Source: Parcubacteria group bacterium Licking1014_17 (lineage in GTDB: Bacteria; Patescibacteriota; Minisyncoccia; 2-02-FULL-40-12; IGHO2-01-FULL-4-A). From it: DNA of 64,000 nucleotides. The notes under the pieces were generated by a model. That model made no database searches and had not been told where the DNA came from. It saw only the letters and a program-made list of their open reading frames with translations. The position numbers were made by a program, and so were the translations under genes. The stretch covers positions 15,134-79,133 of the forward strand of contig VMGJ01000002.1 of assembly GCA_007376485.1 (NCBI GenBank), given 5' to 3'. Shown in pieces: positions 4,333 to 19,321 of this stretch. Numbering within the stretch: position 1 is the stretch's first letter; each line of letters begins with the position of its first letter.

Positions 4333-5556
4333 TTATTCATAACGTAACGCCTCTATGGGATTAAGCCCTGCCGCGCGCCTCGCGGGGTAGTAACCGAAAA
4401 TAATCCCAATAGCCGTCGATACGCCGAACGCTAATATTATCGAAGATAAAGAAATAGAAGTGGTAATACCGCCGAACTTTGAAACCAATAGGCTGGTAAT
4501 CCAACCAACAATCACGCCCGCCGCACCGCCGATGAAGGTAAGCATCACCGCCTCGGCTAAAAATTGCTGGCTGATATCTTTACGTTTGGCGCCGACCGCC
4601 TTGCGAAGGCCGATTTCTCGGGTTCTTTCGGTAACCGTGGTCAGCATCATATTCATAATGCCGATTCCGCCGACTATGAGCGATATGCCGGCGACTGAAC
4701 CAAGAAGAATTGTAAATGTATCGGCGATAGACGATGCGGCGGCGACAATATCGGTCTGGTTCATAATGCTAAAATCGGCCAATGTCGGGTCGGAAATATT
4801 ATGCCGCCCCAAAAGCAGACTGGTTATCTGGCTTTGGGTTTCAGTCATTACCTTTTGGCTGGAGGCCTGCACACTTATCGTGCTCACATAATTGCCGCCC
4901 GACAGAAAACGCTGTGCCGAAGAAATTGGCACGAAAATCATATCATCCTGGTTACTGAAACCGCTCCCGCCCTTGCTTTTTGTAACGCCGATAATCTTGA
5001 ATTCGATTTTTTTAATGCGGATTGCCTGCCCAACCGGATCTACGCCTTCGCCGAAAAGATCATCTCTAACTGTCGGCCCTATCACAACCACCTTAGATAA
5101 ACTTCTTATGTGCTGGCCGGTGATAAAAGAGCCGGAATCAATCTCTATGTTCCTGATTTGTGGGTAGTCGGCAGTCGTACCCAAGACCTGCGTGTTAGTG
5201 TTTGTGCCTTTAGCTGCTATCTGGTAGCGGCCGCTTAATTCCGGCGCCACCGCTGCCACTGTCGGGATTTCCTGCCGAATGGCTTCGGCGTCATCCAGGG
5301 TTAAACTCTGGGCGCTGCCCCGACCAGAACTCACCTGGAAGCCCAGCCCGCGTTGAGTGCCGGGCATAACAATTATCAGATTTGAGCCAAGGGATTGGAT
5401 ATTATTTTCAATAGTGCTTTTGGCGCCCTGGCCTATGGAAATCATGGCGATAACCGAACCGATGCCGATGATAATGCCCAAAACCGTTAGGCCGGAACGG
5501 GCCTTGTTCACCAGAAGCGCCATAGATGTTTCTTTGAACAAGTCGGGATATTTCAT
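4333..5556 (-). CDS. ABC transporter permease of the MacB/FtsX family.
   Basis: Starts MKYPDLFKETSMALLVNKARSGLTVLGIIIGIGSVIAM (a MacB-type N-terminus) and has a C-terminal FtsX four-helix domain. Confidence 0.85.
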   Translation of the reverse strand: MKYPDLFKETSMALLVNKARSGLTVLGIIIGIGSVIAMISIGQGAKSTIENNIQSLGSNLIIVMPGTQRGLGFQVSSGRGSAQSLTLDDAEAIRQEIPTVAAVAPELSGRYQIAAKGTNTNTQVLGTTADYPQIRNIEIDSGSFITGQHIRSLSKVVVIGPTVRDDLFGEGVDPVGQAIRIKKIEFKIIGVTKSKGGSGFSNQDDMIFVPISSAQRFLSGGNYVSTISVQASSQKVMTETQSQITSLLLGRHNISDPTLADFSIMNQTDIVAAASSIADTFTILLGSVAGISLIVGGIGIMNMMLTTVTERTREIGLRKAVGAKRKDISQQFLAEAVMLTFIGGAAGVIVGWITSLLVSKFGGITTSISLSSIILAFGVSTAIGIIFGYYPARRAAGLNPIEALRYE

Positions 5557-5560
5557 TAAT

Positions 5561-6280
5561 TTACTTGAACGGGACTTTAGTTCTCAATTTATTTTGATTT
5601 TTTTTATCGCCGACAATCAGGCCATCGCGGATTTCAATGATACGATCGGCGTGTTCAGCCACATAACGCTCGTGGGTAATTAAAATAACCGTGCGTTTTT
5701 GTTTCTCGTTCAGTATTTGAAAAGTGTAAAGCACGACTTCGCCGGTCTTAGTGTCTAAATTACCGGTCGGCTCGTCGGCTAAAATTATAGAAGGGTTGTT
5801 CACCAGCGCCCGGGCGATAGCCACGCGCTGCATCTGGCCGCCGGAGAGCTGATTGGAACGGTGTTGGTAATGGCTTTCATCTAAGCCAGTATTTTTAAGC
5901 GCTTCCTTGGCGCGGGTTTCTCTTTTTTCCTCGGGCGTATTCGTATACATCAGAGGTAGCATGGCATTACGCAAAACTGTGGCCCTGGGCAGTAAGTTGA
6001 ACGACTGGAAAACAAAACCAAGCTTATCTTTGCGGATGTCAGCCAGTTCATCATCGGACAATTTGGAAACATCATGGCCATCGAGAATGTACTGGCCGCT
6101 GGTAGGCGTATCCAGTGCCCCGATAATATTCATAAGCGTTGATTTGCCCGAACCAGACGGTCCCATAATAGCCACGAATTCACCGTCTTTAATACTAAAG
6201 GTTAATCCTTTCAAGACGGTCGTTTCCACGTTGCCGTTGCCGCTTTTGTAAATTTTAGTAATATTTTTACAATCAATCAT
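5561..6280 (-). CDS. ABC transporter ATP-binding protein, MacB/LolD-like.
   Basis: Shows Walker A (GPSGSGKST), the [15 protein letters not shown] signature, and Walker B ([11 protein letters not shown]). The true start is the ATG at 6280 ([11 protein letters not shown]), which overlaps the upstream stop codon. Confidence 0.9.
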
Positions 6281-6284
6281 ATTT

Positions 6285-8051
6285 TTAACGGGAACCGTTA
6301 AGTCCTCTTGTTCCCCCGCCCGCATTAAGAATACTTCTGTTTTGAGTTGAACTTTGAGTACTGGCTGTTGAAGAAGTAATAGTGCGGGTAACAATCACAT
6401 CGCCTTCTTTTAGTCCGTCGGTGATTTCAGCATAAGAATCGCTGATTAGCCCGACTGTTATTGTTTGCCGCTTCGGTTGGGAATCAAGAACAATGCCGGC
6501 GCTGCTTGCGCTCTGGGCTAAAAGTTCATTGGCGGAACTGGAAGCCTCGCTCGGCATTTCCACGTAGCTGAAATCACTCGAAGTTTTAATCGCTGAGAGC
6601 GGCACCATGAGAACGTTTTGTTTTGAATCCGTGATAATGGATGCCGAAACGCTCATTCCCGGTTTAATCCGGCTATCTTCAGCGTCAAGGCCGATTTTGA
6701 TATTGTAGCTGACAACTCCCTGGCTCACCGCCCCGATAATATCCACATCAGCTACTTTGCCGGTGATGGTTAGATTTTCCACGGCATCAAACGTTAAAGT
6801 AACTTTTTGGTCAATTTTAATCTTAGCCACATCAACTTCATTGAGGGAAATCTCGGCAATCCTTTGATTAGAAATTACCGTGACTGCGGCAGTGCCTCCG
6901 GAAGCGGAGTCCCCGCGCTTAATATTTACCGCTGCTACCGTGCCGGCAAAAGGCGCCCGAACGTAATAATTAGCCAGATTATCCTTGGCGTCCTGCAGCA
7001 CTGCTTGCCGCTGCTGCACTGCTATTTGCTGGCTGGCTAAGTCGAGGGGGTTGCTTTGCTGAGCATTACTAAAATTTCTCTGGGCGCTGGCCAAATTCTG
7101 TTGATTTGAGGTGATTGAATTCTGGATATTCGCCAGTGTATTTATATGGCTGTTCAGTTTGCTTACATAGCCGGCGATATCGGATTGATATTGGGTGATG
7201 GCCGAAGGGATTGGTCGCGAAGTTTGATATTGTTTCATGCTTAAAACCACGGTATCAAGAATGTTCTGTTCGTCTTTAACCGTTTGGGCCATCAATTTGA
7301 CAGTTTCAAGCGTTTCATTAATGAGGACGATGATTTGCTCCGGTGAAGAATAGCGGCTGGTGTTTTTGTAGTTATCAAAATTAGCGCTGAATTTTGCCGC
7401 CGCCGTTTGATAGTTGCCCGCGGACTGATAAATCATAACGTCCATCTGAAAAACACTGTATTGATCCATTAAGTCCCGATAAGCGCCGGTGTTAGCCTGA
7501 GTTGAGCTGCCAACCTTGGCATCGTAAAGAATGCCGCGAATACCGGTTGAAATGTCGGGCAGGTCGAGAAAAGCGTTGGCTACGCCGTTGAATCCGTTTT
7601 GATAGGCCTGCCCCAAATTGCTCTGGGCGTTGGTAATCGTATCTTGCAATTGGGGGATACTGGAACTTTGGCTCAGTTTGGTTTTTTGTAAGCTTATTTG
7701 AGCATTTTCCAAACTAATTTCTGCGTCCCGGATGGCTTTCAAAGCATCTTGGGTATTAAGTTGAACCAGTAAAGTTCCGGCCCGGACGGCTTGTCCGTTT
7801 TTTACACCCACGTAGACCACGTCGCCGGAGACCTTTGGTTTTACATCCACCTGATTTGATGCCGAAATCTGCCCGCTTCCCGAAATGGAAGATATTATTG
7901 TTCCTTTTTGGACGCTGGCGAGTACATATTGAGATGCTGCCGTGCCGCCACTGCCTCTGACCAGCAAATAAATTATAACGATTACCACCAGCGCCGAAAC
8001 CGCGGAAATTACTTTGTGTTTGCTGATAATTTTTTTAATTTTTTGTATCAT
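6285..8051 (-). CDS. HlyD/MacA-type periplasmic adaptor (membrane fusion protein).
   Basis: Has an N-terminal transmembrane helix, biotinyl-lipoyl-like segments (VKPKVSGDVVYVGVKNGQAVRAGTLL and RAPFAGTVAAVNIKRGD), and a long Q/N-rich coiled coil. Confidence 0.8.
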   Translation of the reverse strand: MIQKIKKIISKHKVISAVSALVVIVIIYLLVRGSGGTAASQYVLASVQKGTIISSISGSGQISASNQVDVKPKVSGDVVYVGVKNGQAVRAGTLLVQLNTQDALKAIRDAEISLENAQISLQKTKLSQSSSIPQLQDTITNAQSNLGQAYQNGFNGVANAFLDLPDISTGIRGILYDAKVGSSTQANTGAYRDLMDQYSVFQMDVMIYQSAGNYQTAAAKFSANFDNYKNTSRYSSPEQIIVLINETLETVKLMAQTVKDEQNILDTVVLSMKQYQTSRPIPSAITQYQSDIAGYVSKLNSHINTLANIQNSITSNQQNLASAQRNFSNAQQSNPLDLASQQIAVQQRQAVLQDAKDNLANYYVRAPFAGTVAAVNIKRGDSASGGTAAVTVISNQRIAEISLNEVDVAKIKIDQKVTLTFDAVENLTITGKVADVDIIGAVSQGVVSYNIKIGLDAEDSRIKPGMSVSASIITDSKQNVLMVPLSAIKTSSDFSYVEMPSEASSSANELLAQSASSAGIVLDSQPKRQTITVGLISDSYAEITDGLKEGDVIVTRTITSSTASTQSSTQNRSILNAGGGTRGLNGSR

Positions 8052-8067
8052 TTATAAAATATTAATA

Positions 8068-8574
8068 TTAACGCGGCGCTAAAGGCATTGGCGACATTGG
8101 CATTGACGGCAACACTCTGATGAATTTCGCCATTATCTGGCCGGAATTGTCTGGATTGCCGATTATTACGATGTTATTGCCCACCTTCAAATCATTGGGA
8201 CTGACAGTATCCCGTAAATATCTGGTTACCGTGTCGTTTTCAACGATGACAATCTTTTCGACGTTATCCTGCCCCTTAATAATTAACGTCGGCCCTGATT
8301 TCTCCAGACTTGCCGGGGGGTCAATTTTAATAATCAAACCAGCCACGCCGTGGCCATCGGATAGATCTCCTCCGCCTAAACCACCGAATAAGCCGCCTCT
8401 GGGACCGCCGAAGTTCCGGTGATAGTTTTCAGCCCATGTGTATGAAAATCCCGCCTTGCGATATCCAATCATCATGCCGATACTAAACGTTCCTACCAGC
8501 ACAGCAATGCCAAACAACACAAGAATAATGACCATGAACATTTTTGATTTTAAAAATTGTATAAAATTGTCCAT
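8068..8574 (-). CDS. Membrane-anchored DUF5666-like protein, a paralog of the 3894..4326 gene.
   Basis: Has a transmembrane helix, a Gly-rich linker (GGPRGGLFGGLGGG), and a beta-rich domain (GLIIKIDP...TLIIKGQDNVEKIVIVENDTVTRY...LKVGNNIVIIGNPDNSGQIMAKFIRVL) that resembles the domain of the 3894 gene. Confidence 0.4.
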   Translation of the reverse strand: MDNFIQFLKSKMFMVIILVLFGIAVLVGTFSIGMMIGYRKAGFSYTWAENYHRNFGGPRGGLFGGLGGGDLSDGHGVAGLIIKIDPPASLEKSGPTLIIKGQDNVEKIVIVENDTVTRYLRDTVSPNDLKVGNNIVIIGNPDNSGQIMAKFIRVLPSMPMSPMPLAPR

Positions 8575-8588
8575 ATTATTATTAATTA

Positions 8589-9014
8589 TTATTTTTTATT
8601 ACGGGTAGATTTTATTAACGAAACAAACTTTTCGTAATTTGAGCCTACAAATTTCACAAACAGCAGCACAAAAGTCAGAGGGATTAAGAAAATAACTATG
8701 GAGCTTCCGGGCATCGATTCCAAGAGAGACAAAATAAAACTTTGCCAGTATTTAATCACTATGCCCGGGTCGGAATATATTAAAGACAAATAAGGGCCGA
8801 AACTGGATTCTGACAACACTTCCTTTAAACCGATAAACGCGAAAATTGACAGAAAAAGGAAAACCGCCGCGGCTGCGATAAAAACCCCCAAATGCCTCTT
8901 AACCAAGCGGATTCGTTTTTCAAGCCCCAGACGCCTGATTATCCGCGAAAAAAGACCATGGGGTGGTTCCATCGGAACAATATAGTCGTAATTTGTTTTC
9001 TCATTTTCCCGCAT
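8589..9014 (-). CDS. Membrane protein, possibly the anti-sigma factor for the adjacent ECF sigma.
   Basis: Lies immediately downstream of the ECF sigma gene and has a cytoplasmic N-terminus followed by transmembrane helices. There is no sequence-level motif. Confidence 0.35.
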   Translation of the reverse strand: MRENEKTNYDYIVPMEPPHGLFSRIIRRLGLEKRIRLVKRHLGVFIAAAAVFLFLSIFAFIGLKEVLSESSFGPYLSLIYSDPGIVIKYWQSFILSLLESMPGSSIVIFLIPLTFVLLFVKFVGSNYEKFVSLIKSTRNKK

Positions 9015-9174
9015 AAGCCCCTACGATATCAATACGACCGGCTTATGCCTTTTGGTTCATCCCGAACGAAGCAGCAACAGCCAGACATAAGTTAGCGTGT
9101 GTCTACTGGCTATTCATTTAATGACTATGATCAGCCATTTATGAACCCGCAAGGGCTACTTTGTACGGGATTCG

Positions 9175-9741
9175 CTATTTTGAGGTCAGTATCTTTTTCA
9201 ACAACAAAATACCCCTAAAATATTGAGTTTTGACGGTATTTATCGGCTTTTCAAGCAATTCCGCGATCTCCCGAAATTTCAAGCCGTCATTAATATGCAT
9301 ATTTATGACCGAGTTATACTGGGCCGGCAGTCTCGCCAACGCCAAAGATAATCCCCTTGCGGTTTCCTTTGATGATAAGAAATCAACAACCGACGGAGCC
9401 ATGTCCGGTATGTTGTCAACAAAACTATGCTCGCTCTGGTCATCTTTAATTTTCGAAAACGGCACCGCGGTTTTTTTCTTGAGCCAGTCAATGGCGGTAT
9501 GTTTGGCTATAGTAAAAATCCACGCCCTAAAGCTTTTAAACTCATCGAAACGCTTTAGGTTTCGCCATACCTTAATGAAAACTTCTTGGGTTATATCAGA
9601 GGCGTTGCCCGTGCTGCCCGTATATCTGCGGACAAATCCGTACACGAGAGGAAGATACCGCGCGACAAGACTCTCGAGAGCCGACTCATCGCTATCTTTT
9701 AAATAACGCGCGATTAATTGTTCATCTGTGAACTGATTCAT
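9175..9741 (-). CDS. ECF-family RNA polymerase sigma-70 factor.
   Basis: Contains region 2 (FRAWIFTIAKHTAIDW) and region 4 (INDGLKFREIAELLEKPINTVKTQYFRGILLLKK). The start was moved to the ATG at 9741 (MNQFTDEQLIARYL). Confidence 0.8.
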   Translation of the reverse strand: MNQFTDEQLIARYLKDSDESALESLVARYLPLVYGFVRRYTGSTGNASDITQEVFIKVWRNLKRFDEFKSFRAWIFTIAKHTAIDWLKKKTAVPFSKIKDDQSEHSFVDNIPDMAPSVVDFLSSKETARGLSLALARLPAQYNSVINMHINDGLKFREIAELLEKPINTVKTQYFRGILLLKKILTSK

Positions 9742-9825
9742 GATTAAAACAAAATTATAACATATCCGATCAAGAAACAGCAGTTGAGACAACAAGTCTC
9801 CCGCGCTCGGTTAATTAGAAAAGTT

Positions 9826-10302
9826 TTAGTAATGCACATACACCGGCGTTCCGACATCGGCGAAATTGTAAAGCTGTTCCATGTCGCGATACGAAACATT
9901 AACGCAGCCATGGCTTCGCGGTGTGCCAAAGGCGTTATGCCAATAAGCGCCGTGAATATAATAACGAGGAAGGAAAAGGAGATTCCACTTTGTGTGAGGA
10001 AAGTTATAATACGTCCCGTTGCTGTTGCGTCCGAAATAATTCACAAACGGGATTTTTTGGCGGACGGTGAATTCCCCCGGCGGGGTTGGATACCACTTTA
10101 CTCCGGAAGAAATCAGGATGTTGCCGACTTCCGCATCGCCGAGATAATAACGGAGCCTTTGTTCGGTTAAATTAATATCAATTTTTTTCTTCGGTAACAG
10201 TTCATTAGGCACGGAGGCCGGCGCGTTAGCTTCTGAAACTAATGGAATAAAAGAAAAGAATATCGCTACTATAATGCCTACTGTTTTTAGCTTTGCACTC
10301 AT
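9826..10302 (-). CDS. L,D-transpeptidase (YkuD domain), secreted.
   Basis: Has a signal peptide and the catalytic HGAYWHNAFGTPRSHGCVNV motif, with the His and Cys of the SHGC box. Confidence 0.8.
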   Translation of the reverse strand: MSAKLKTVGIIVAIFFSFIPLVSEANAPASVPNELLPKKKIDINLTEQRLRYYLGDAEVGNILISSGVKWYPTPPGEFTVRQKIPFVNYFGRNSNGTYYNFPHTKWNLLFLPRYYIHGAYWHNAFGTPRSHGCVNVSYRDMEQLYNFADVGTPVYVHY

Positions 10303-10379
10303 ATAAACTATGACGATTAATAACTCTCGGCGGTATGCCGTATTTTATCCGCCATAGCTTACCTATTGCACAATATCCC

Positions 10380-11036
10380 CTACTGCACAAGACGCGCCGA
10401 TACCACGAGGCGCTGTTTTGTTGAAAATAACGGCGTGCAGGTTATAAGCGTTAAATGAGGAGTGGGCGTGGGATTTAAAACGGAAACTTCGGTAGGCATG
10501 ACGGTTTTCACCTCATCAACCTCATAGGTATATCGCCCGCCCAGCCAGAGTACTATTATTCTGTCGCCTATCGCAACCGAATCCAGATTATAAAATGTTT
10601 TCTTGATCGGCGGGCGGTAAAGGAAGCGGTGTCCGAAAATAACCGTATTGCCGTTTTTGTCCGGTGTTGAAGTGCTCGGGTAAATCCAACCGCCTTTTGA
10701 AAGAGTGCCCGCATCCTTGCCGGTATAAATTGGCATATCAATATTCGCTTTCTCAATTATGACTCTGTTTGCCTGCGGCGCTTGGCCGGCTGTGCCGTTT
10801 GGCGCCTTATCACTGTTGCCAATTGCAGTATTTTGGAATGCCTCGACAACATCCGTCTGGCGCTGCAGTTCGGTAATCTTTTGAGACGTATCGCCCATAT
10901 ACCCGCCTCCGTGAAACAGATCGGGCATAAAAGGCAATAAAGCTAAAGCCGTCCCTGATACAACAAACACGATACCGATAATCAGGTATACTTTTCTTTT
11001 TTTAATCTTATTCTTTTTGGGCTTTAAAAAATTCAC
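10380..11036 (-). CDS. Sortase family transpeptidase.
   Basis: Has an N-terminal transmembrane anchor, catalytic His (GNTVIFGHRF), the TLITC motif (HLTLITCTP) and a conserved Arg (VVSARL). Confidence 0.8.
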   Translation of the reverse strand: MNFLKPKKNKIKKRKVYLIIGIVFVVSGTALALLPFMPDLFHGGGYMGDTSQKITELQRQTDVVEAFQNTAIGNSDKAPNGTAGQAPQANRVIIEKANIDMPIYTGKDAGTLSKGGWIYPSTSTPDKNGNTVIFGHRFLYRPPIKKTFYNLDSVAIGDRIIVLWLGGRYTYEVDEVKTVMPTEVSVLNPTPTPHLTLITCTPLFSTKQRLVVSARLVQ

Positions 11037-11112
11037 CTTTATTTTTAACCGCGCGCAAAAGAAGCCAAACCCCTCCTTTTGTGCGTATAAGCAACCCTTC
11101 TAATATTATAAG

Positions 11113-12882
11113 CTATTTGCCGATTTTCTTGAGAAACTTTCTTGGCGAAAATCCGATTCCGAAAGCAATCATCGCAAGTCCGGCTGTTATCATTGAAGCG
11201 AACATAGCGTAAAGCAATTCGAGATCGAGAGAAAAACCGGTATTCGGCAGGGTCGTGGCGGCGCCCAGCACTTCACCCGCTGGCGTGGGAGTGGGATATG
11301 CCGCCGCAATTACTATAGCAGGAGTTTCCGTGGGCGTCGGCTCGGGAATTTCTATGCTGGCACCGGCGACTGATCCGCCACTGCCGCCGCTGCTGCCATG
11401 ACTGGGATTATTGAACGCCCCGTTAATATCGCCGTTTACCAAAGTGCATATCTTATGGTCGCCGAAATTCAGAACTACCTGCCCGCCAGGAGCACAATCG
11501 TTTTCAAACCCTTTAAATTCATAGCCGCTGGGCGGACCATTTTCGCCTACATTGTAGGTCCCCGGCGCCAAGGAATAATAGGTACCTGCGCCCGAGCCGG
11601 CAGCTGGACTTCCGGAAACATCCGTACCGGAATTGTTCACATCAGCCAGTGTGGTTTTGATTAACATTCCTAAAATCCAATTCGGCTGAAGGAGCGTGGG
11701 TTGGAGAAGACTTCTCACATGAACAACGATATCCGAAGGCACGATTCCGCCGCCATGAGTGTTATTAACTACAGTGATGACAAAGAGAGTAGTGTCACCC
11801 GGCGGAGTTGGGGTCGGGGTCGGAGTTGGAGCTGGAGACACTGACCCTGATGGTGTGGGAGTGGGCGTAACACTGCCGGAAGGGGTAGGCGTGGGAGAAA
11901 CCGATCCCGAAGGCGTAGGTGTCGGTGTAACGCTGCCGGAAGGGGTAGGCGTGGGGCTGGAGGTTTCAGTCGGCGTGGGGGTAGGCGTGGGCGTTGGCGA
12001 AGGGCAGATAAATGTGGCTAACGACAAACCCGGAACATAATTGATTGTGGCATTGTTCCCGATATTAACTTTCTGGCCGTAGACAGCCGTGATATCACCA
12101 TTTGAAGATGGCTCCAGAAGTACGCCGCCATTTAAGGAATAAAAGACAACAGAATTGCCCGGGTTTGACTGGACATCAATAGAATTATCGCCGGTATTTT
12201 GCGATGAAACCAAAAGAAGAAATCCGGAACCGTTGGCGCCGGCTTTGGCATTTCCTTCCAATAGGATTGTGCCTTTTGCCATTACAACCGTGCCGGCAGC
12301 ACCGAACGAGGCGTCAATAAAGAAGCTTGAATTCATTCCTAAAATAATATTTCCGGTCACATAAATCGGTCCTTCAATTATGGCAGCTGCGCCAGGACCC
12401 AAAATTAAATTCCCATCAATTTTAACCGGACCTATAAAAGTGGGGTTGTTTAACATGGAAATAAGAACATCTCCAGTAATAGTTCCCCCTTCGGCGGCGG
12501 CATTTTCCCAATCGGATTCGCTGATTGGAGGAAGCGGCTCCGGAGCCGCGCCTTCGGTGACTGTGCCCGTAACTTTGATACCAAACGGCGGGATATTATT
12601 AATAGTTCCCGCGGCAGTGGCGTTCCCGTTTATTTTTGACCATGCTCCCGTAGCACCAACATTAGCATCTGAACGGACATTGCCATTCACCAAAGCATTA
12701 GCGCCTAAGCTGACATCTTTACTATCTGACTGTACCGCATAAGGAAAAGATATTGTCGTCCCCTGCTTACAGCTTGAATCCGCCCGGCTGTTTTGGGATT
12801 GGGCAATCAAAACAATGCCTACGACTATGGCAATTATTGAAAGAAAACTGACGCCGGTCCTCTTAATTGTTTTTGTGCTCAT
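11113..12882 (-). CDS. Cell-wall-anchored surface protein with a C-terminal LPNTG sorting signal, a candidate sortase substrate.
   Basis: Has a signal peptide, a Pro/Thr-rich stalk ([23 protein letters not shown]... with a tandem SGSV[T/S]PTPTP x4), and a C-terminus of LPNTG followed by a hydrophobic transmembrane stretch and the basic tail RKFLKKIGK. Confidence 0.75.
11815..11990. repeat. Tandem roughly 30-nt repeats encoding SGSV(T/S)PTPTP x4 plus PT dipeptide runs.
   Basis: The DNA and protein periodicity are visible directly. The plus-strand ORF 11759..12040 (GVGVG...) is the shadow of this repeat. Confidence 0.7.
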
Positions 12883-15800
12883 ACGCGTTTCCGGGTGGAA
12901 GGTTTTCTGACACGCCGTGTCGTTTTCCTTCCAGAACGGTTAATTAATTTTCTTTTTAATTTGGGTTTGCCCCTCGGCTTTCTTGACTTGCCCCGAATAT
13001 ATACCATTTCGTTGCCTATTGCAAAGAGCAATGCCAAGGCTGAAATAATTATCAATAAGGGGAAACTCTGGCTCTTGCCGCCAGGGGTTTTTGTTACCGG
13101 AACGTTTTGCCCGACTAGATCTGTTTGTGTAAGTTCAGCCGACTGATTTTCCGGGCTAAAAGTCGAGGCGCCTTTGACTTCGCCGCGCGAAGCAACACTA
13201 TCTGCGTTTGCCGCATTTGCCCCAATCGTATTGACCACGGCTTGAACAACTACCTTTTTTGCCTGCTCCTTCACTTTTTCAAGAACCGGCTCGTCTTTTT
13301 TGGGCTCGTCCAGATTCAACAGCTGGTTCTTTTGCCGTATTACTCCGTTATCGCTGTTGCCGATTATACTGAATGAACTTATAGCCGCCACTTCGGAAAT
13401 TACCTTCCTGAACGTGTAAGAATTAATTGCCTCAACATAAGCGGAATTCGTGTAAACCCCGGATTTCACATTTTCCGGAATCTCAAGCGAATAACTGATT
13501 TCAGCCTGTTCCCTGACGGCAAGCGTATCCAGCGGATAGGTGCTTTGAGCCATAATCTGCCCGTCAGGACCGCGCAGCGTGTCGTAAACTATGACGCTGT
13601 ACATGTCAATACCGCCGACGTTATGGGCGACGACAGTAAACTGAATCACGTCATGGGGACGAACGCCGGAGCTCGCGGCATCGTTTGTCTTGCTGACCAC
13701 AAGCGCCGCGGTTTGAACCGGTTCCGAGGAATATTGGGCGGCTTCCGTATAAGTTACGGTGGGATTCACGACCGGCATTACATTTTGATTTTGAGAATTT
13801 TGCGTTGATTCGTTATTTGGACCGTTCTGATTTGAATTATCCTGATTCTGGTTGCCACTCGGCGTTGACGAATCATTATTCTGCTGTTGGCTGTCCTGTT
13901 GATTTCCGGAGCTCCCAGAGTCCGGAGTCAACGCTGGCGATGTTGCCGGAGCCGGCGTCAACACTGTCTCGGTCAATACTGATTCGTTGTTTGATAAATT
14001 TTGCTCGGGTCCCATTCCACCTATGCGTGCGTAGGTTTGCACCGTCTCGCCGCCGGCAAAATCAGCGTTGGAATCCAAAGTAACGTCAAAACTGCTCTGG
14101 CTCTTGGGCGCTAATTTCCCGAGTGAAAATGTTATCATACCCAAGCTCTGACTGGCGGTGAAATCCTGAATGCCCGCCACGCTATCAAGCGTGAAAAATG
14201 AAGGATTGTAGCGCCATTCAAGGCTGGCGTCAGCCATGGAAGATTCCCCCTCATTTCCATAACCAATGCGGTATGTTACCGGCTGATTCTTGGCAGTCGG
14301 CAAGTCCGGAACCGGCTGTACGCGACTCTGGATGACGGACAAATCGGGATAACCAAAAATGACATTGCCGTCCCAAGTGCCAAAAATATTAATCATTCCA
14401 ATAAATAGGTCCGCGTTAATCAGATTCGTGTTGGCAAAATTGAGAATATTGGCGAGCGCCTTAGTGTTGCCGGAGAATATTTCGGCGTGCCTGATGCTCT
14501 CGGCTTCAACCGAGTTATTGCCCGAGTCGGTTCGTAGGTCAACATTATTATTAATATTTGCCGTATTTTCATTATCGATTGAAAACGAAGTTGACGAAGT
14601 TTCCGACGCCTGCACAAGGGTAGCTTCCATCAGTCCGTAATTGGGGCCGGTATCCTTAGCGCTTGCCGAGAAAAACGCCAGGCCGTTGGGCGTCTGGGCC
14701 AAAGCCACCTGGTCCGGGATAGAGTAAATACTGCCCGACCATGCACCCAAAGTGTTGACCATGCCCAAATACCATTTGCCGTTGTAAATCGTGCTGTCGG
14801 TGAAAGTGTTTACGTTGGAGACCGTCAGCGAGTCGCCGGTCTGGATATTTCCGTCGCGGATTTCACCGAGATCCTGGCTTGTGCTTCCCGTAGCCGCGAT
14901 TTCGTTGCCGCCGCTCGATGCGTCAACTAACACGTTATTGTTAATCGTTGATGTGTTCGTGTTCGCTATTTCCACATTGACCGTTCCCACGGTGTCGGCA
15001 TTGACATTTGTGCCGGTTACCGACGGTCCAATGCCGTAATGGTCGGCAAAATACATTTCGGACGGAAGCACCAAATCTCCCTTCCAGTCGCCGAAAATAT
15101 TTATTGACGAAATAGTCCAATGGGAATTAATAAGATTCGTGTTAACGATATTAAGAATATTGATAACCGCGTTAACGTCGCCCGTGTGAATATCGGCGGC
15201 GCGTTCGGTATTATTGATTTGATTCTCGCCCGAAACACCTAATGCACTCACGTTGTTCGTGATATTGGCGCTGTTTTTATTGGTAAGCTTGAATGAATTG
15301 ATGTTCTGGCACTGCGCGTCTCCGCACAAACCCTCGGCGAGAGTTTTTGTGATTTCGGATGAACCGGCGTCGGGATTATTGAGCAACAGGTCAGTCGAAA
15401 GATTATTGAAATTCTCAAATATCTGAGTGATGTCCGAATTTACGAGATTTGTGTTGACGACGTTCACGACGTTTGCATAGAGATTCACTTCGCCGCTGTT
15501 TATCTCGCTATATCTGCTTCCCGGCTCCGAATTAATCGCGTTCCGGCCGCTGATGCCCTGCACGTCCGCGTTGTTTGTGACTTTGACGTCGTTCGTGTTG
15601 ATAATTTCAACGACTGTCTGAAGATTCTGCCCCTCATCAACCACCAAACCATCAGGCTGGGTTATTTTCAGCTCGGAAGCGGGAACGCAGGTGTTTTGAG
15701 GCACATCCGACGGGCTTGGAGACGGAGACGGCGTCATTTCCGCGCTTAGCGAACTTACTAGAGCCAGCGAATCAAAACTCGGTGAAGCTAAAACTTCTGA

Positions 15801-16304
15801 ATTATCAGGCGAAGGAGTCGGTGTCGGGGTATGAATAATAACGCATGGCATTGCTTCCTGTCCTTCCGCTGATGAACTGGCTGTGCTCACAACCGGAGTA
15901 TCGCCGACACCGCCGGCATTTACATTCTGTTGGAGAACGGCATTGCCGCCAGCCGCCGATGCGTCATTTATTGTAATTGTGAAATCCGGAGTGCTTGAAA
16001 TCGGCGAGGGTGTCGGTGTCACCACGGTTTCGGATACATTTCCAGTATCGGGTTGGGTTTCAGGGCTCACTGCCGGAAATTGGCTTACTGACGGTTCCGG
16101 CGTGAGCGAAGGAATTGGCTCCACGACAACATTTACATCAACCAGTTGATCGGCAGGCGGTATCGTCTCCATGGCATAAACTTTTCCGGCGGAAATTATG
16201 AAAGGAAAGATAATCAGATTAAGTATGAAAATGGACGCCACAAAACGCCGCCCCAAGCGAACGAGATTTTTATTAAAAAGTAATTGTCGACCGGCTGTTT
16301 TCAT
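12879..16304 (-). CDS. Giant 1141-aa secreted surface protein with DUF11-like domains and four copies of a novel roughly 65-aa N/T-rich repeat.
   Basis: Has a signal-anchor sequence and a repeat reading NNxxV...SGxNxI...[36 protein letters not shown], present four times. Two DUF11-like segments are present ([24 protein letters not shown]... and [25 protein letters not shown]). There is a Q/N-rich low-complexity block, and a C-terminal hydrophobic segment with a very basic tail (PVTKTPGG...[15 protein letters not shown]...[12 protein letters not shown]). It overlaps the 11113..12882 gene by 4 nt. Confidence 0.7.
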
Positions 16305-16360
16305 GTCCTACCCGAACGTTCCCGGGGAGCGTTCAGCCCCCCGGGAACAATCCGTACGAG

Positions 16361-16957
16361 TTATTTAATCGTCTTCTTAACTATCTTATTGAAGAGATTG
16401 AAAACCGTGCTTGTCTGGGTGGCAGAATCGCTGGTGCCAGTCCACATGCTGGTCGCTTTCAGAGTACCATCGGCAAAAACGGTATTCGTTCCGGTATTGC
16501 CAAAAGCGCCGACCAAGGTCTTGAATGTGACTCCCTGAGTGGAGTCTGTGTCGGTTATTGCTTTGTCTTTGTTCTTGATTATGGCTTCCGAACCCGCGTC
16601 TACGGTCTCAATCTTGTCGGCGCTGGTGTTGCTCGACTCGACTGATACGTCAACGGACGTGCTGTTGGCGGCATCCTCGGTTGAAGTCGCGGCTTGCGTA
16701 TTGCCGGTAGACATTGATGTCGCGCTCTGGTCATCGGTTGATGACACGACGTTACTGCCTGAATTTGACGATGCCGAAACACTGGTGTGGGTAATGTTTG
16801 CCGTGTTCGCCGTATCCATGAACGCGCCGAAGAACACGCGATTCCTAATCTTGGCAAACGAACCTTCGGTAATGCCAGTGATTGTCGCGGCATGGGTGAT
16901 GCCCGCTGTAAAAGCGATCACTCCCAAGACCGTCAATAATACTGCTACTTTTTTCAT
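16361..16957 (-). CDS. Secreted 198-aa protein of a paralogous pair, built from the repeat module of the giant surface protein.
   Basis: Signal peptide, then ATITGITEGSFAKIRNRVFFGAFMD...ANITHTSVSASSNSGSNVVSS... Confidence 0.6.
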   Translation of the reverse strand: MKKVAVLLTVLGVIAFTAGITHAATITGITEGSFAKIRNRVFFGAFMDTANTANITHTSVSASSNSGSNVVSSTDDQSATSMSTGNTQAATSTEDAANSTSVDVSVESSNTSADKIETVDAGSEAIIKNKDKAITDTDSTQGVTFKTLVGAFGNTGTNTVFADGTLKATSMWTGTSDSATQTSTVFNLFNKIVKKTIK

Positions 16958-17059
16958 TTTTTACATGTCATCACGGGGAGGATAATGGCTATTCTGAAAT
17001 AGACACTATCCCGCGCCAAGATGACATTTTTTAAACACAAAAAATAACCCTTGTGGGTC

Positions 17060-17656
17060 TTATTTAATCGTACGCGTGATGGTGAAAGCCGAAATATTGA
17101 ACAGATTGGCTAAACCTGTCGCTGTTTGAGCTATGCCGGTCTTCATCACCGTATCCCTAAGTTTATCGCCGGAAATCACCGCATTGCTGCCTGTTGTGGC
17201 AATGGCAGCGATAGCATTGGTGTTCTTAATGTCGTTTTTATTATCCAGATCTATTTTAACTTCATCTTCGTTCTTAATTTTGGCATCGGAACCGTCGCTG
17301 ACATTGCTGATTGCATCATCCGTTGTCGAAGCCGATTCTACTGCCACGGCTGCTGTTGTTTCATTCGCTTCGTTTGTTACCATCGTCGCCGCTGTCGTAT
17401 CGCCGGTTGTAACACTGGTTGCTCTTTGTTCTCCGGCAGAGGTTACGGTGTTATTGCCCGAACCCGAGGAAGAAGTGACCGTGTTCGTGATGGTGGCTTT
17501 GTTGTTGTTGTCCAGGAAAACTCCGACAAAGAAAGAGTTGAATATCTTTCCTGTCGAACCTCCATTGATGCCGGTTATGGTCGAAGCCGAAACCGAGCCT
17601 GCAATCGCGAAAACGAATATAACTAAGGATACCACTAATAATTTTCTCATATACAC
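17060..17656 (-). CDS. Secreted 198-aa protein, paralog of the 16361..16957 gene.
   Basis: Signal peptide, then STITGINGGSTGKIFNSFFVGVFLD...ATITNTVTSSSGSGNNTVTS...TGDTTAA. It is the same length and layout as its paralog. Confidence 0.6.
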   Translation of the reverse strand: MYMRKLLVVSLVIFVFAIAGSVSASTITGINGGSTGKIFNSFFVGVFLDNNNKATITNTVTSSSGSGNNTVTSAGEQRATSVTTGDTTAATMVTNEANETTAAVAVESASTTDDAISNVSDGSDAKIKNEDEVKIDLDNKNDIKNTNAIAAIATTGSNAVISGDKLRDTVMKTGIAQTATGLANLFNISAFTITRTIK

Positions 17657-17989
17657 CTCCTTCCTATTAAACTAGTTACCTCCAGGTAAACTAGCGCGCA
17701 CTTTACTCTGGAAATAAATTTCCCAGATTTAACCCTTATAACACGACAACCTTTTTTTGTGCAAGATATTGACAAGAATAGATGTTGATAACTTAAAAAT
17801 AACAACAATATCGGCAAAAATATTTTAAACCACAGATTGTGATGAATTTATACTACGAAAAGGCTCTGGAATAAATTATTTTTCAACCTTCGACCTGTTT
17901 TAATCTTACTCATACAACGGCTAATCTTCAGAGTTCGTGACTGCAACGCGGATTCCGTGAAAATAATCAGAATTTTTTTCCTGCCGATG

Positions 17990-19321
17990 TTAGTTACCGT
18001 AACTGCATTGTTTAACGTAGCCAAACGCCGGATCTCTAAAAACATAATTTGAACAGGAAACACTATTGGTGTACGTGCCGTAGTAGAATATATTGTTGGC
18101 GCCATAACGCACCTGGTGTGTGCCGTTGAAGTAGCACATTTGGTTTTCACCGGCGCAGAATGTCCAACCGCTCTGATATGAACCGCTGCCGCCGATATTT
18201 ACATTCAAAGCTCCACAGCTGTTGGTTGAGGCGCAGATTACAACCACCGTGGCGCTGTTAGTCATGCCCGTAAGCGTCATATTACTGCCGCTAAGGTTTA
18301 CCTGCATCGAGCCCGGATTGGAATTATAAGCCGCGTAATAACTGCCGCCAGAACCGCCATAAATCGAGATGTTCATGCTCTGGCCTATGGTTAAGCTGGG
18401 ATTATTCTGGCTGAATGAAAGCTGATTATTATAATTATAGTTGTAGTTGTTGTAAGATGAGCCCGACCCAACGGTAATATAAAGCGTGCCACAATATGAC
18501 TGGTTGTAAGAGCAAACGCGGAGCGAGCCCGAGCCGGTATTTTTGCCGATAATCGTAATAGTGTTGTTGCCGATTACAGAGTCGAAGATATTAAGAGTGT
18601 CAGGAAACATGTTGTAAGGCGTGGCACCGCCGGAAATAGTGATGCTCGCCGTCCCGCCGATGTTGATGCTGACGTTATTCTGGCTGAATGAGATTTGACC
18701 GCCGCCCATATTGCCGCCGGATTGGTATTGAACAGTCACATAAATGCTGGCGCAATTGGACGAGTATGAACTTAAGCAGATGGTTATAGTCGCTGAACCG
18801 TAATTACTGCCATAAACGGAAATCTGACTGCCGCTGATGCTGGATGTGGCGACTGAAGGATTGGTATTTCCGGAAATATAAATCGAGGCACCGCTGTTAT
18901 AAGCCGTAATCGTAGACGACTGCCCGATCGTCAGCGTGAGATTCGTCTGGCTCAATGATAAACTGCCGCTTCCGCCCGTGCCGGGCCAGGTGACACTTGA
19001 CGACTGCTGGCTGTTAACCATGACATATGCCTGACTGCCGGGAATTACGCCGTAAAAAGATGTACTAAACACAATTGAGAAATATCCGTTATAATCCGTC
19101 ATTCCGATATACTGCGATTGCTGGCCGTAATAATTTTTCTGGTAATACAGCGTAACGCTCGAATTCGAGTCGCCGTTGACTGTCATTTGAACATTATCCC
19201 CGCTGCCGGTGGCGGAAACCGACAACACAGGACTCATGGCATGAACGCTCGCCGAAATAGCCCAAAAACCGCCGATAATAACCGTGCTTACAACAAAAAC
19301 CCGTAATATGTTTTTACACAT
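17990..19321 (-). CDS. Secreted protein with three roughly 78-aa Ig-like S/N/Y-rich repeats and a Cys-rich C-terminal domain.
   Basis: Has a signal peptide and repeats LSLSQTNLTLTIGQSSTITAY.../ISFSQNNVSINIGGTASITIS.../LSFSQNNPSLTIGQSMNISIY.... The C-terminus reads WTFCAGENQMCYF...SVSCSNYVFRDPAFGYVKQCSYGN. Confidence 0.6.
   Translation of the reverse strand: MCKNILRVFVVSTVIIGGFWAISASVHAMSPVLSVSATGSGDNVQMTVNGDSNSSVTLYYQKNYYGQQSQYIGMTDYNGYFSIVFSTSFYGVIPGSQAYVMVNSQQSSSVTWPGTGGSGSLSLSQTNLTLTIGQSSTITAYNSGASIYISGNTNPSVATSSISGSQISVYGSNYGSATITICLSSYSSNCASIYVTVQYQSGGNMGGGQISFSQNNVSINIGGTASITISGGATPYNMFPDTLNIFDSVIGNNTITIIGKNTGSGSLRVCSYNQSYCGTLYITVGSGSSYNNYNYNYNNQLSFSQNNPSLTIGQSMNISIYGGSGGSYYAAYNSNPGSMQVNLSGSNMTLTGMTNSATVVVICASTNSCGALNVNIGGSGSYQSGWTFCAGENQMCYFNGTHQVRYGANNIFYYGTYTNSVSCSNYVFRDPAFGYVKQCSYGN

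Follow-up and report, generated by a model that had tools for sequence, protein, structure and literature searches.

In the curli system (CsgA/CsgB, PF07012), a secreted subunit and a cell-associated protein share an imperfect repeat with many N, G, A, S, and T residues. A similar arrangement is found in a string of genes of Parcubacteria group bacterium Licking1014_17, a representative of the candidate phyla radiation (CPR), situated at positions 9826-19321 on the minus strand of the 64-kb stretch of DNA analysed here (the window; all window coordinates below refer to this strand). A module of around 80 amino acids (aa) occurs four times in a membrane-anchored protein of 1141 aa (in the following, the giant), and the core of the same module occurs twice in each of two small exported proteins, smA and smB, whose genes precede that of the giant. 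This pairing of genes is conserved in other CPR loci together with a hairpin in front of the giant gene, and its product is most likely a surface fibre or adhesin anchored to the cell. Neither curated families nor solved structures nor the literature were found to cover the module or the operon, and no paper was found that connects beta-solenoid or amyloid fibres of the cell surface, or this module family, with CPR; the logic of the system resembles that of anchored-nucleator fibres and of fibrillar adhesins.

Further similarities to curli concern the alternating conserved positions with glycine turns (SGxN and TGxAxA here, GxGNxA in curli) and the stacked beta rungs, which are predicted in the present case, CsgA being among the weak matches of a Foldseek search (see below). 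However, there is no sequence relationship to curli (neither a Pfam nor a PDB profile match), the rung comprises around 80 aa as against around 22 in curli, CsgG/E/F-type secretion genes are absent among the Pfam-scanned neighbour genes, and anchoring is due to a giant that stands on CLIPPER stalks and is tethered by a transmembrane segment, not to a small CsgB-like protein. Concerning Fap (FapC/FapB), FapC is the top Foldseek match for both structural models (9nqd, E 0.045; 9u4u, E 0.023), and multi-strand rungs from long imperfect repeats are found in both systems, whereas the matches are not significant (TM-score 0.07-0.13), sequence similarity is lacking, and no FapF-type genes for outer-membrane export are located among the Pfam-scanned neighbours. 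In the chaplins of Streptomyces, with the long ChpA-C being sortase-anchored and the short ChpD-H being secreted, anchored multi-domain and short secreted forms likewise have one domain in common, and genes of surface proteins are accompanied by that of a sortase; yet the chaplin domain is hydrophobic and only around 40 aa long, with no similarity or Pfam match here, and the multi-module protein of the present locus is anchored by a transmembrane segment instead of LAXTG, the sortase substrate being a different protein.

Among adhesins, the fibrillar ones with CLIPPER domains are comparable to the giant (CLIPPER being the recent name of DUF11, a CnaA-like stalk domain; PMC12617251), in that the giant and its relatives carry such Ig-like domains between a distal block and the anchor, and the LPXTG homologs at two related loci (L007 and L008) also carry DUF11. 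The distal block is different, consisting here of an undescribed array of four modules, with which small paralogs are always co-encoded. SpaA-type sortase pili also combine a sortase, an LPXTG protein, and CnaA-like stalk domains in one locus, whereas the repeat proteins studied here possess neither pilin motif nor LPXTG and the single sortase stays below the class cutoffs. Bacillus TasA/TapA, finally, is comparable as an envelope system of monoderm type with a Sec-secreted subunit and a co-encoded cell-associated partner, but there is no Peptidase_M73/TasA match here, the predicted fold differs, and no SipW-like peptidase is found among the Pfam-scanned neighbours.

The module of the giant

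The giant (12879-16304) consists of a signal peptide, a disordered region rich in proline and threonine (PT-rich), the four modules, two CLIPPER/DUF11-like domains, a C-terminal transmembrane segment, and a basic tail. The modules extend over aa 229-305 (15390-15620), aa 335-415 (15060-15302), aa 441-528 (14721-14984), and aa 571-652 (14349-14594); their starts are spaced by 106-130 aa, and their pairwise identity amounts to 25-44%. An earlier note on this DNA had described four repeats of about 65 aa in the giant. The four repeats are real, but the conserved unit is around 80 aa long; its consensus opens with NxNxAxIxNNVxxxAxSGxNxI. A word-index search with the module region returned 38 relatives of 600-750 aa, which contain three or four modules each, and the 42 four-module proteins yielded four distinct consensus sequences, such that the modules are position-specific. 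Conserved and variable columns of the module alternate with a strict two-residue periodicity; G25 and G43 are invariant, and N10, N16, N27, N50, N53, N56, and N70 are conserved at 69-94%. A hidden Markov model (HMM) of the module was built from 113 units. The first module of P0002, P0007, P0015, P0018, P0022, P0023, P0026, and P0027 covers only HMM positions ~30-78, and would in these relatives represent an incomplete first rung.

The module fits no named family, as had been supposed: there is no Pfam or NCBIfam match at E<=0.1 in the module region of the window giant, in the small proteins, or on the modules of 10 relatives, and no match to PDB sequences even at the profile level. CARDB, CnaB, and TIGR01451/DUF11, the known repeats onto which it might have mapped, were rejected because such matches are absent from the module region of the window giant and of the 10 relatives; DUF11 and CARDB matches sit C-terminal to the modules. 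Equally, matches to Peptidase_M73/TasA, curlin (PF07012), or chaplin (PF03777) were absent from the Pfam and NCBIfam searches at E<=0.1, and neither of the two family profiles (module and small proteins) matched PDB chains at E<=1 or 10, the entries of CsgA, FapC, and TasA included.

The exact 1141-aa translation of the giant is missing from the protein collection searched, in which all its neighbours are present, and the word-index search with the giant region did not return the window giant itself; the deposited annotation probably has another start or a split gene. A cysteine pair, ranging from CxxC to Cx4C, is present in 19 of 34 giants at positions that differ among relatives. In the window giant, it is located in the linker between modules 1 and 2 (aa 327-332, nt ~15309-15326), where, judging from the sequence, it may act as a disulfide staple.

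The small proteins smA and smB

The two small proteins (smA, 17060-17656; smB, 16361-16957) are 42% identical (E 4e-38). A Sec signal peptide with the cleavage site VSA-S is found in smA. The start codon of smA is probably the ATG at 17650, because GGAGG lies 6 nt upstream of it, which results in the length of 196 aa also given in the NCBI record (smA being 100% identical to CEN90_211, with the gene neighbours TSC91743-TSC91748). A profile search of 1.84 billion representative proteins revealed 57 small-protein clusters, nearly all of 195-204 aa, and the alignment of the small family exhibits an internal duplication, with IxxVxDxSxA, around 12 further aa, and NxNxAxIxNxVxSxxNSGGNxxxS...TGxAxAxxxVxNxAN occurring twice. 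The word-index search with smA returned only smA.

BLASTP of the small proteins against the giant gave weak matches only (E 0.24 or worse), which are not significant, such that HMMs are needed to see the link. The module HMM matches smA twice, with 28.9 bits in total as compared to a maximum of 1.5 among 1000 composition-matched shuffles (z = 12), and the corresponding value for smB is z = 4.8. Profile-profile comparison (hhalign) of the halves of the small proteins with the module resulted in probabilities of 96.3% (E 1.5e-9) and 93% (E 3.4e-7), and with the HMM of the small family (48 sequences), related giants score up to 134 bits. Given these HMM, shuffle, and profile-profile scores, the module common to the small proteins and the giant is real, and the relationship suggested in the earlier note holds. 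Each small protein is made up of two copies of the module core of around 58 aa (module positions ~3-60), located in smA at aa 49-101 (nt 17354-17512) and aa 137-190 (nt 17087-17248), and in smB at aa ~48-103 (nt 16649-16816) and aa ~149-191 (nt 16385-16513). The order from N- to C-terminus is that of the giant; the circularly shifted order formerly proposed has to be abandoned, as no profile match exists between the N-terminus of the small proteins (TITGI..GKIF) and the INIFGxWxG tail of the module.

Both smB and smA end with -TIK (16361-16363 and 17060-17062, respectively), and the gene of a YkuD L,D-transpeptidase is situated in the same string. The C-terminal lysine is not kept in the small family, most members of which end otherwise.

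Conservation of the gene pair and its hairpin

For comparison, three metagenome loci and 18 loci of GTDB genomes were analysed, the latter found with a four-sequence alignment of module 4 as query; they are numbered L001-L022, with L003 repeating L002, and thus comprise 21 independent loci. The genome loci originate from Saccharibacteria, Yanofskybacteria, Doudnabacteria, Roizmanbacteria, Curtissbacteria, Daviesbacteria, and unclassified Patescibacteria. In all 20 loci with upstream DNA present, one or two module-bearing small genes are situated directly upstream of the giant on the same strand (L020 starts at a contig edge, such that the DNA upstream of its giant is missing). Mostly, these genes encode small-family proteins of around 200 aa; shorter or longer variants with weaker HMM scores are found in L001, L002/L003, L004, L019, L021, and L022. 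A homolog of the LPXTG protein of the window (589 aa, see below) follows the giant in L007, L008, and L012, carrying DUF11 and, in L008 and L012, an LPRTG signal, and a sortase homolog is located downstream or nearby in 7 of the 21 independent loci (L004, L008, L012, L013, L014, L020, and L022).

The gene order of small genes, giant, LPXTG protein, and sortase, as first read from the window, is hence in part repeated in other CPR genomes. No counterpart of the YkuD protein or of a 443-aa protein, both of which had been counted as members of the cluster, was found at the 22 related loci. The invariant core is formed by the small gene(s) and the giant; YkuD and the 443-aa protein are neighbours only. 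Two of the loci are situated on contigs of around 12 kb that carry the same operon and stem from a Candidatus Binatia metagenome-assembled genome (MAG; L017) and a Gammaproteobacteria MAG (L019); these are likely mis-binned CPR contigs.

Between the stop codon of smB and the ATG of the giant, a GC-rich stem-loop with a stem of 14 bp is located (16317-16349; dG -36.1 kcal/mol, z -5.3). All 17 related loci examined possess a GC hairpin of 12-16 bp behind the last small gene; ranked by stability among the 50-nt windows of the locus (around 20 kb), it comes first or second in 11 of them and likewise in the window. Its position is conserved and its sequence is not, which points to attenuation or to a 3'-end stabilisation favouring the transcript of the small genes. 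The hairpin is therefore a candidate attenuator or 3'-end stabiliser, which would set a high ratio of small proteins to giant.

A scan for consensus promoters and terminators found no more sites than expected by chance. Right after the stop codon of smA, a weak terminator-like hairpin with a T-run is present (17046-17059; z only -1.85), and a promoter-like TTGCAC-18-TATAAG (17735-17764), read by eye, is situated around 85 nt upstream of smA.

Predicted structure

The module-bearing part of the giant (aa 225-655) was confidently predicted by AlphaFold2 to be all-beta, with a predicted local distance difference test score (pLDDT) of 82.9 and a predicted TM-score (pTM) of 0.80, and each module exhibits a strand pattern of ~22, 3, 5, 11, 3, and 9 residues. 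The corresponding prediction for smA has a pLDDT of 82.7, and the two halves of the protein possess matching strand lengths, including two strands of 32 residues. Foldseek searches against PDB and BFVD returned nothing at E<=0.001; the weak matches, namely FapC (the best one), CsgA, ice-binding proteins, SufD, bactofilin, and pectate lyase, are all parallel beta-solenoids or functional amyloids, and tapirin and SRRP were also among the weak matches. On the basis of the sequence, the two-residue periodicity and the seven conserved asparagines suggest a wide-rung, curli-like stack, and the conservation pattern of the module would fit a buried face with asparagine ladders.

Stalk and membrane anchor

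C-terminal to the modules, the giant continues with two stalk domains, which are separated by a linker rich in glutamine and asparagine. The first of them (aa ~655-785, 13950-14342) matches the DUF11 regions of P0007, P0008, P0010, and P0026 with a probability of 96.3% in hhalign, and the second (aa ~866-980, 13365-13709) matches residues 320-432 of P0006 in phmmer (E 1.5e-17), which are the DUF11/DUF7507 match of that protein. In the relatives, Pfam DUF11 is found C-terminal to the modules; in the window giant, there is no match to Pfam DUF11 (PF01345) at E<=0.1. The DUF11-like domains that the earlier note had seen in the giant are thus supported by transitive homology to the DUF11 regions of the relatives, but not by a direct Pfam match.

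The transmembrane segment of the giant (nt 12996-13064) is followed by a long basic tail, and a C-terminal transmembrane-like segment is present in 37 of 44 giants. A canonical LPXTG was found neither in the window giant nor in its relatives (44 giants checked). In 11 of the 44, a (P)EVQA(A/V) motif is situated 30-60 aa ahead of the C-terminal transmembrane segment (background 0.02 per 110 aa); this subfamily includes P0011, P0017, P0021, P0022, P0026, P0032, P0034, and L021, and the motif is often followed by GEILG. As it resembles the GEVLGA..LPNTG context of the sortase substrate in the window, the motif may be a relic or an alternative processing site. As a conserved sorting-like VQA(A/V) motif before the transmembrane segment of the giants it was rejected, being found in just these 11 giants and being absent from the last 110 aa of the window giant.

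The sortase and its substrate

The window contains one sortase (10380-11036) and one LPXTG substrate, i.e., a PT-rich protein of 589 aa (11113-12882). The sortase exceeds the cutoff of PF04203 clearly (98 bits versus 26.6, E 4e-28) and contains the catalytic FGH (His), LITCTP (Cys), and RLVV (Arg) motifs. It possesses only an N-terminal transmembrane segment, without a C-terminal one and without a lid motif of the DPW type, and no NCBIfam class cutoff was reached: 88.8 bits versus 160 were obtained for class C (NF033745), and 78.3 versus 160 for class E. The substrate ends with a complete sorting signal, consisting of LPNTG at aa 545 (nt 11236-11250), preceded by GEVLGA, a hydrophobic transmembrane segment, and the basic tail RKFLKKIGK. 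The small proteins contain neither an LPXTG-type motif nor a transmembrane segment, and a PK-containing pilin motif is absent from smA, smB, and the LPNTG protein. The earlier note had regarded the system as a sortase-assembled fibre. Since the small proteins and the giant lack a sorting signal, it does not appear to be a sortase-polymerised pilus; a pilin motif and a class C signature are missing as well.

The LPNTG protein consists of a Cys-bracketed, beta-helix-like head (aa ~30-300, nt 11983-12795), a PT linker, a second domain, and the sorting signal. The head has no direct Pfam match to DUF7305 (PF23981), and its homologs (E down to 1.5e-35) are CPR proteins of 380-430 aa, some of which carry DUF7305, DUF5649, or PilX_N at or just above or below the cutoffs. 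As the Joint Genome Institute (JGI) names some of these homologs PilX or PilV, the head domain appears to be employed by type IV pilus-like proteins as well as by wall-anchored ones such as the present protein. The LPNTG protein is most simply read, from its domains, as a separate adhesin. It is named 'polymorphic outer membrane protein' by NCBI, and a PDB sequence and profile search with it gave only noise of the PT linker.

In the sortase homologs of L008 (~13700-14158), L012 (13763-15331), L013 (8354-9109), and L014 (11822-12472), the motif reads LQTS[YW]P, with Ser in place of the catalytic Cys of TLxTC, and His and Arg are kept; the catalytic Cys is kept in the window sortase and in the homologs of L004, L020, and L022. 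The four loci with Ser are those with operons most similar to that of the window. From the sequence of this motif, these sortases could represent a serine-nucleophile or an inactive CPR lineage. Furthermore, the LPRTG substrate and a sortase domain share one stop-free frame in L008 (11681-14158, an open reading frame (ORF) of 826 aa) and in L012 (6593-13633 and 13763-15331), and the giant of L012 likewise lies in one stop-free ORF with the LPXTG homolog; these shared frames may be real fusions or contain internal starts.

Possible assembly and alternative explanations

From the shared module and the predicted structure, we put forward the tentative model, to which we give somewhat less than even confidence, that this CPR-specific surface operon builds a fibre by stacking secreted two-module small proteins non-covalently on the membrane-anchored four-module giant. 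Each module would contribute one wide rung to a parallel, beta-solenoid-like stack held together by asparagine ladders, and the four rungs of the giant would constitute a stable cell-anchored base or template on CLIPPER/DUF11 stalks. The small two-rung proteins would be made in excess, with the stem-loop attenuating read-through or stabilising the upstream transcript, and would stack onto the base and then onto each other, thereby extending the fibre by the same logic as in CsgB/CsgA, FapB/FapC, and the long and short chaplins. The LPNTG protein would be linked to the wall by the adjacent sortase, separately from the fibre, and the system would likely serve to attach the cell to a host or a surface, or to form a matrix there. 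A more far-reaching version, according to which the system would constitute a third, structurally distinct and CPR-specific class of functional-amyloid-like fibres for the host attachment of ultra-small epibionts, with very wide Asn-ladder rungs of around 80 aa, a membrane-tethered four-rung giant that nucleates and holds the fibre, and two-rung subunits over-expressed via the hairpin, appears doubtful to us.

Several points weigh against the stacking model. We infer the polymerisation of the small proteins from sequence and predicted structure, and the parallel stacking from strand lengths, pTM, the conservation pattern, and the kind of the weak Foldseek matches. The smA model, however, reaches a pTM of only 0.53, and the best Foldseek matches (E 0.02-0.05, TM-score < 0.15) are not significant. 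A library-wide search with a two-sequence profile of the small proteins found small proteins only and no giants, such that the link between them needs deeper profiles, and the small units match the module-1 profile only marginally better than those of the other modules. Where two small paralogs occur, they cluster within their own locus; this rules out a conserved pair of A-type and B-type paralogs, i.e., there is no conserved major and minor small protein. The hairpin between smB and the giant lacks a U-tract, and its effect on expression is hence only putative.

Rather improbable, in our opinion, is the alternative that the giant is a stand-alone fibrillar adhesin, with the four modules as a ligand-binding head on a CLIPPER stalk and the small paralogs as soluble or loosely bound, non-polymerising proteins (lectins, decoys, or edge caps). 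Its layout of signal peptide, head, stalk, and anchor fits the pattern of CLIPPER fibrillar adhesins (PMC12617251), beta-solenoids often bind carbohydrates (cf. the weak Foldseek matches to pectate lyase, tapirin, SRRP, and ice-binding proteins), and the four position-specific modules of fixed number resemble a folded domain; yet the tight co-encoding of small proteins with the same module, the tight length of the small family at around 197 aa, and the conserved hairpin between small gene and giant would be left unexplained. A defined hetero-complex, in which the small proteins are stoichiometric partners capping or completing the stack of the giant, e.g., by beta-sheet augmentation of an incomplete first rung, would account for the many relatives in which the long first strand of module 1 is missing (only HMM positions ~30-78 being present), for the longer first strand of the small proteins (32 versus 22 residues), and for the slightly best scores of their units on the module-1 profile. 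We consider it distinctly unlikely, however, as the first module of the window giant is complete and a 1:1 partner would need no strong hairpin before the giant gene.

Two further explanations involve the enzymes encoded nearby. A covalent link between peptidoglycan and the C-terminal Lys (-TIK) of smA and smB, made by YkuD, would concern the window only. In E. coli, L,D-transpeptidases attach Braun lipoprotein (Lpp) through its C-terminal Lys, and here both paralogs end in Lys with a YkuD gene in the same string, but neither the Lys is conserved in the small family nor is a YkuD homolog present at any related locus, so that such anchoring is highly improbable. Hardly any credence at all can be given to a pilus in which the module subunits are joined covalently by sortase. 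The gene string contains a sortase together with an LPNTG protein, and in 7 related loci the giant has a sortase homolog downstream or in its vicinity; on the other hand, an LPXTG-type signal and a pilin-motif lysine are absent from both the small proteins and the giant, the sortase remains below the class C cutoff and lacks the DPW-type lid motif and a C-terminal transmembrane segment, and 14 of the 21 independent loci contain the pair of small gene and giant, with no sortase in the available DNA.

Organization of the gene string and neighbouring genes

The seven ORFs that the earlier note had listed as a contiguous, co-oriented cluster were all confirmed with their coordinates, with short gaps or overlaps between them, and all proteins of this gene string are exported or envelope proteins. 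At its downstream end, the YkuD L,D-transpeptidase (9826-10302; Pfam E 9e-23) matches PF03734 with 81.9 bits versus a cutoff of 23.4. At the opposite end, the secreted protein of 443 aa (17990-19321) contains three Ig-like repeats of around 80 aa, which are 33-38% identical (E 1e-7 to 1e-9) and possess a Cys pair each, and a Cys-rich C-terminal domain of around 60 aa (aa ~384-443, 17990-18180; WTFCAGENQMCYFNG...VRYG...CSNYVFRDPAFGYVKQCSY) without Pfam match. Directly downstream of the string, further co-oriented genes are situated (4333-9795), encoding an extracytoplasmic function (ECF) sigma factor (9175-9795), two small transmembrane or unknown proteins, an HlyD-type adaptor, an ABC ATPase, and a MacB/FtsX permease. 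A linkage of the system to the ECF sigma factor, the MacAB-like genes, the L,D-transpeptidase, or the 443-aa protein was rejected, as these do not adjoin it in other loci.

Significance

CPR bacteria, or Patescibacteria, constitute a large share of bacterial diversity, and those in culture live attached to other microbes. To our knowledge, almost nothing is known about their surface structures beyond type IV pili. Cultured Saccharibacteria are now genetically manipulable, such that the fibre hypothesis is directly testable if a cultured strain carries the operon. The locus of Licking1014_17 represents a conserved, hitherto unannotated two-component surface system, which ranges from Saccharibacteria to Parcubacteria and is recognised by the signature of small gene(s), hairpin, and giant. 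If the stacking model is true, it would provide a new architecture for functional amyloids and self-assembling beta-solenoid materials; if it is wrong, the module would still constitute a new family of adhesin head domains deserving a family model.

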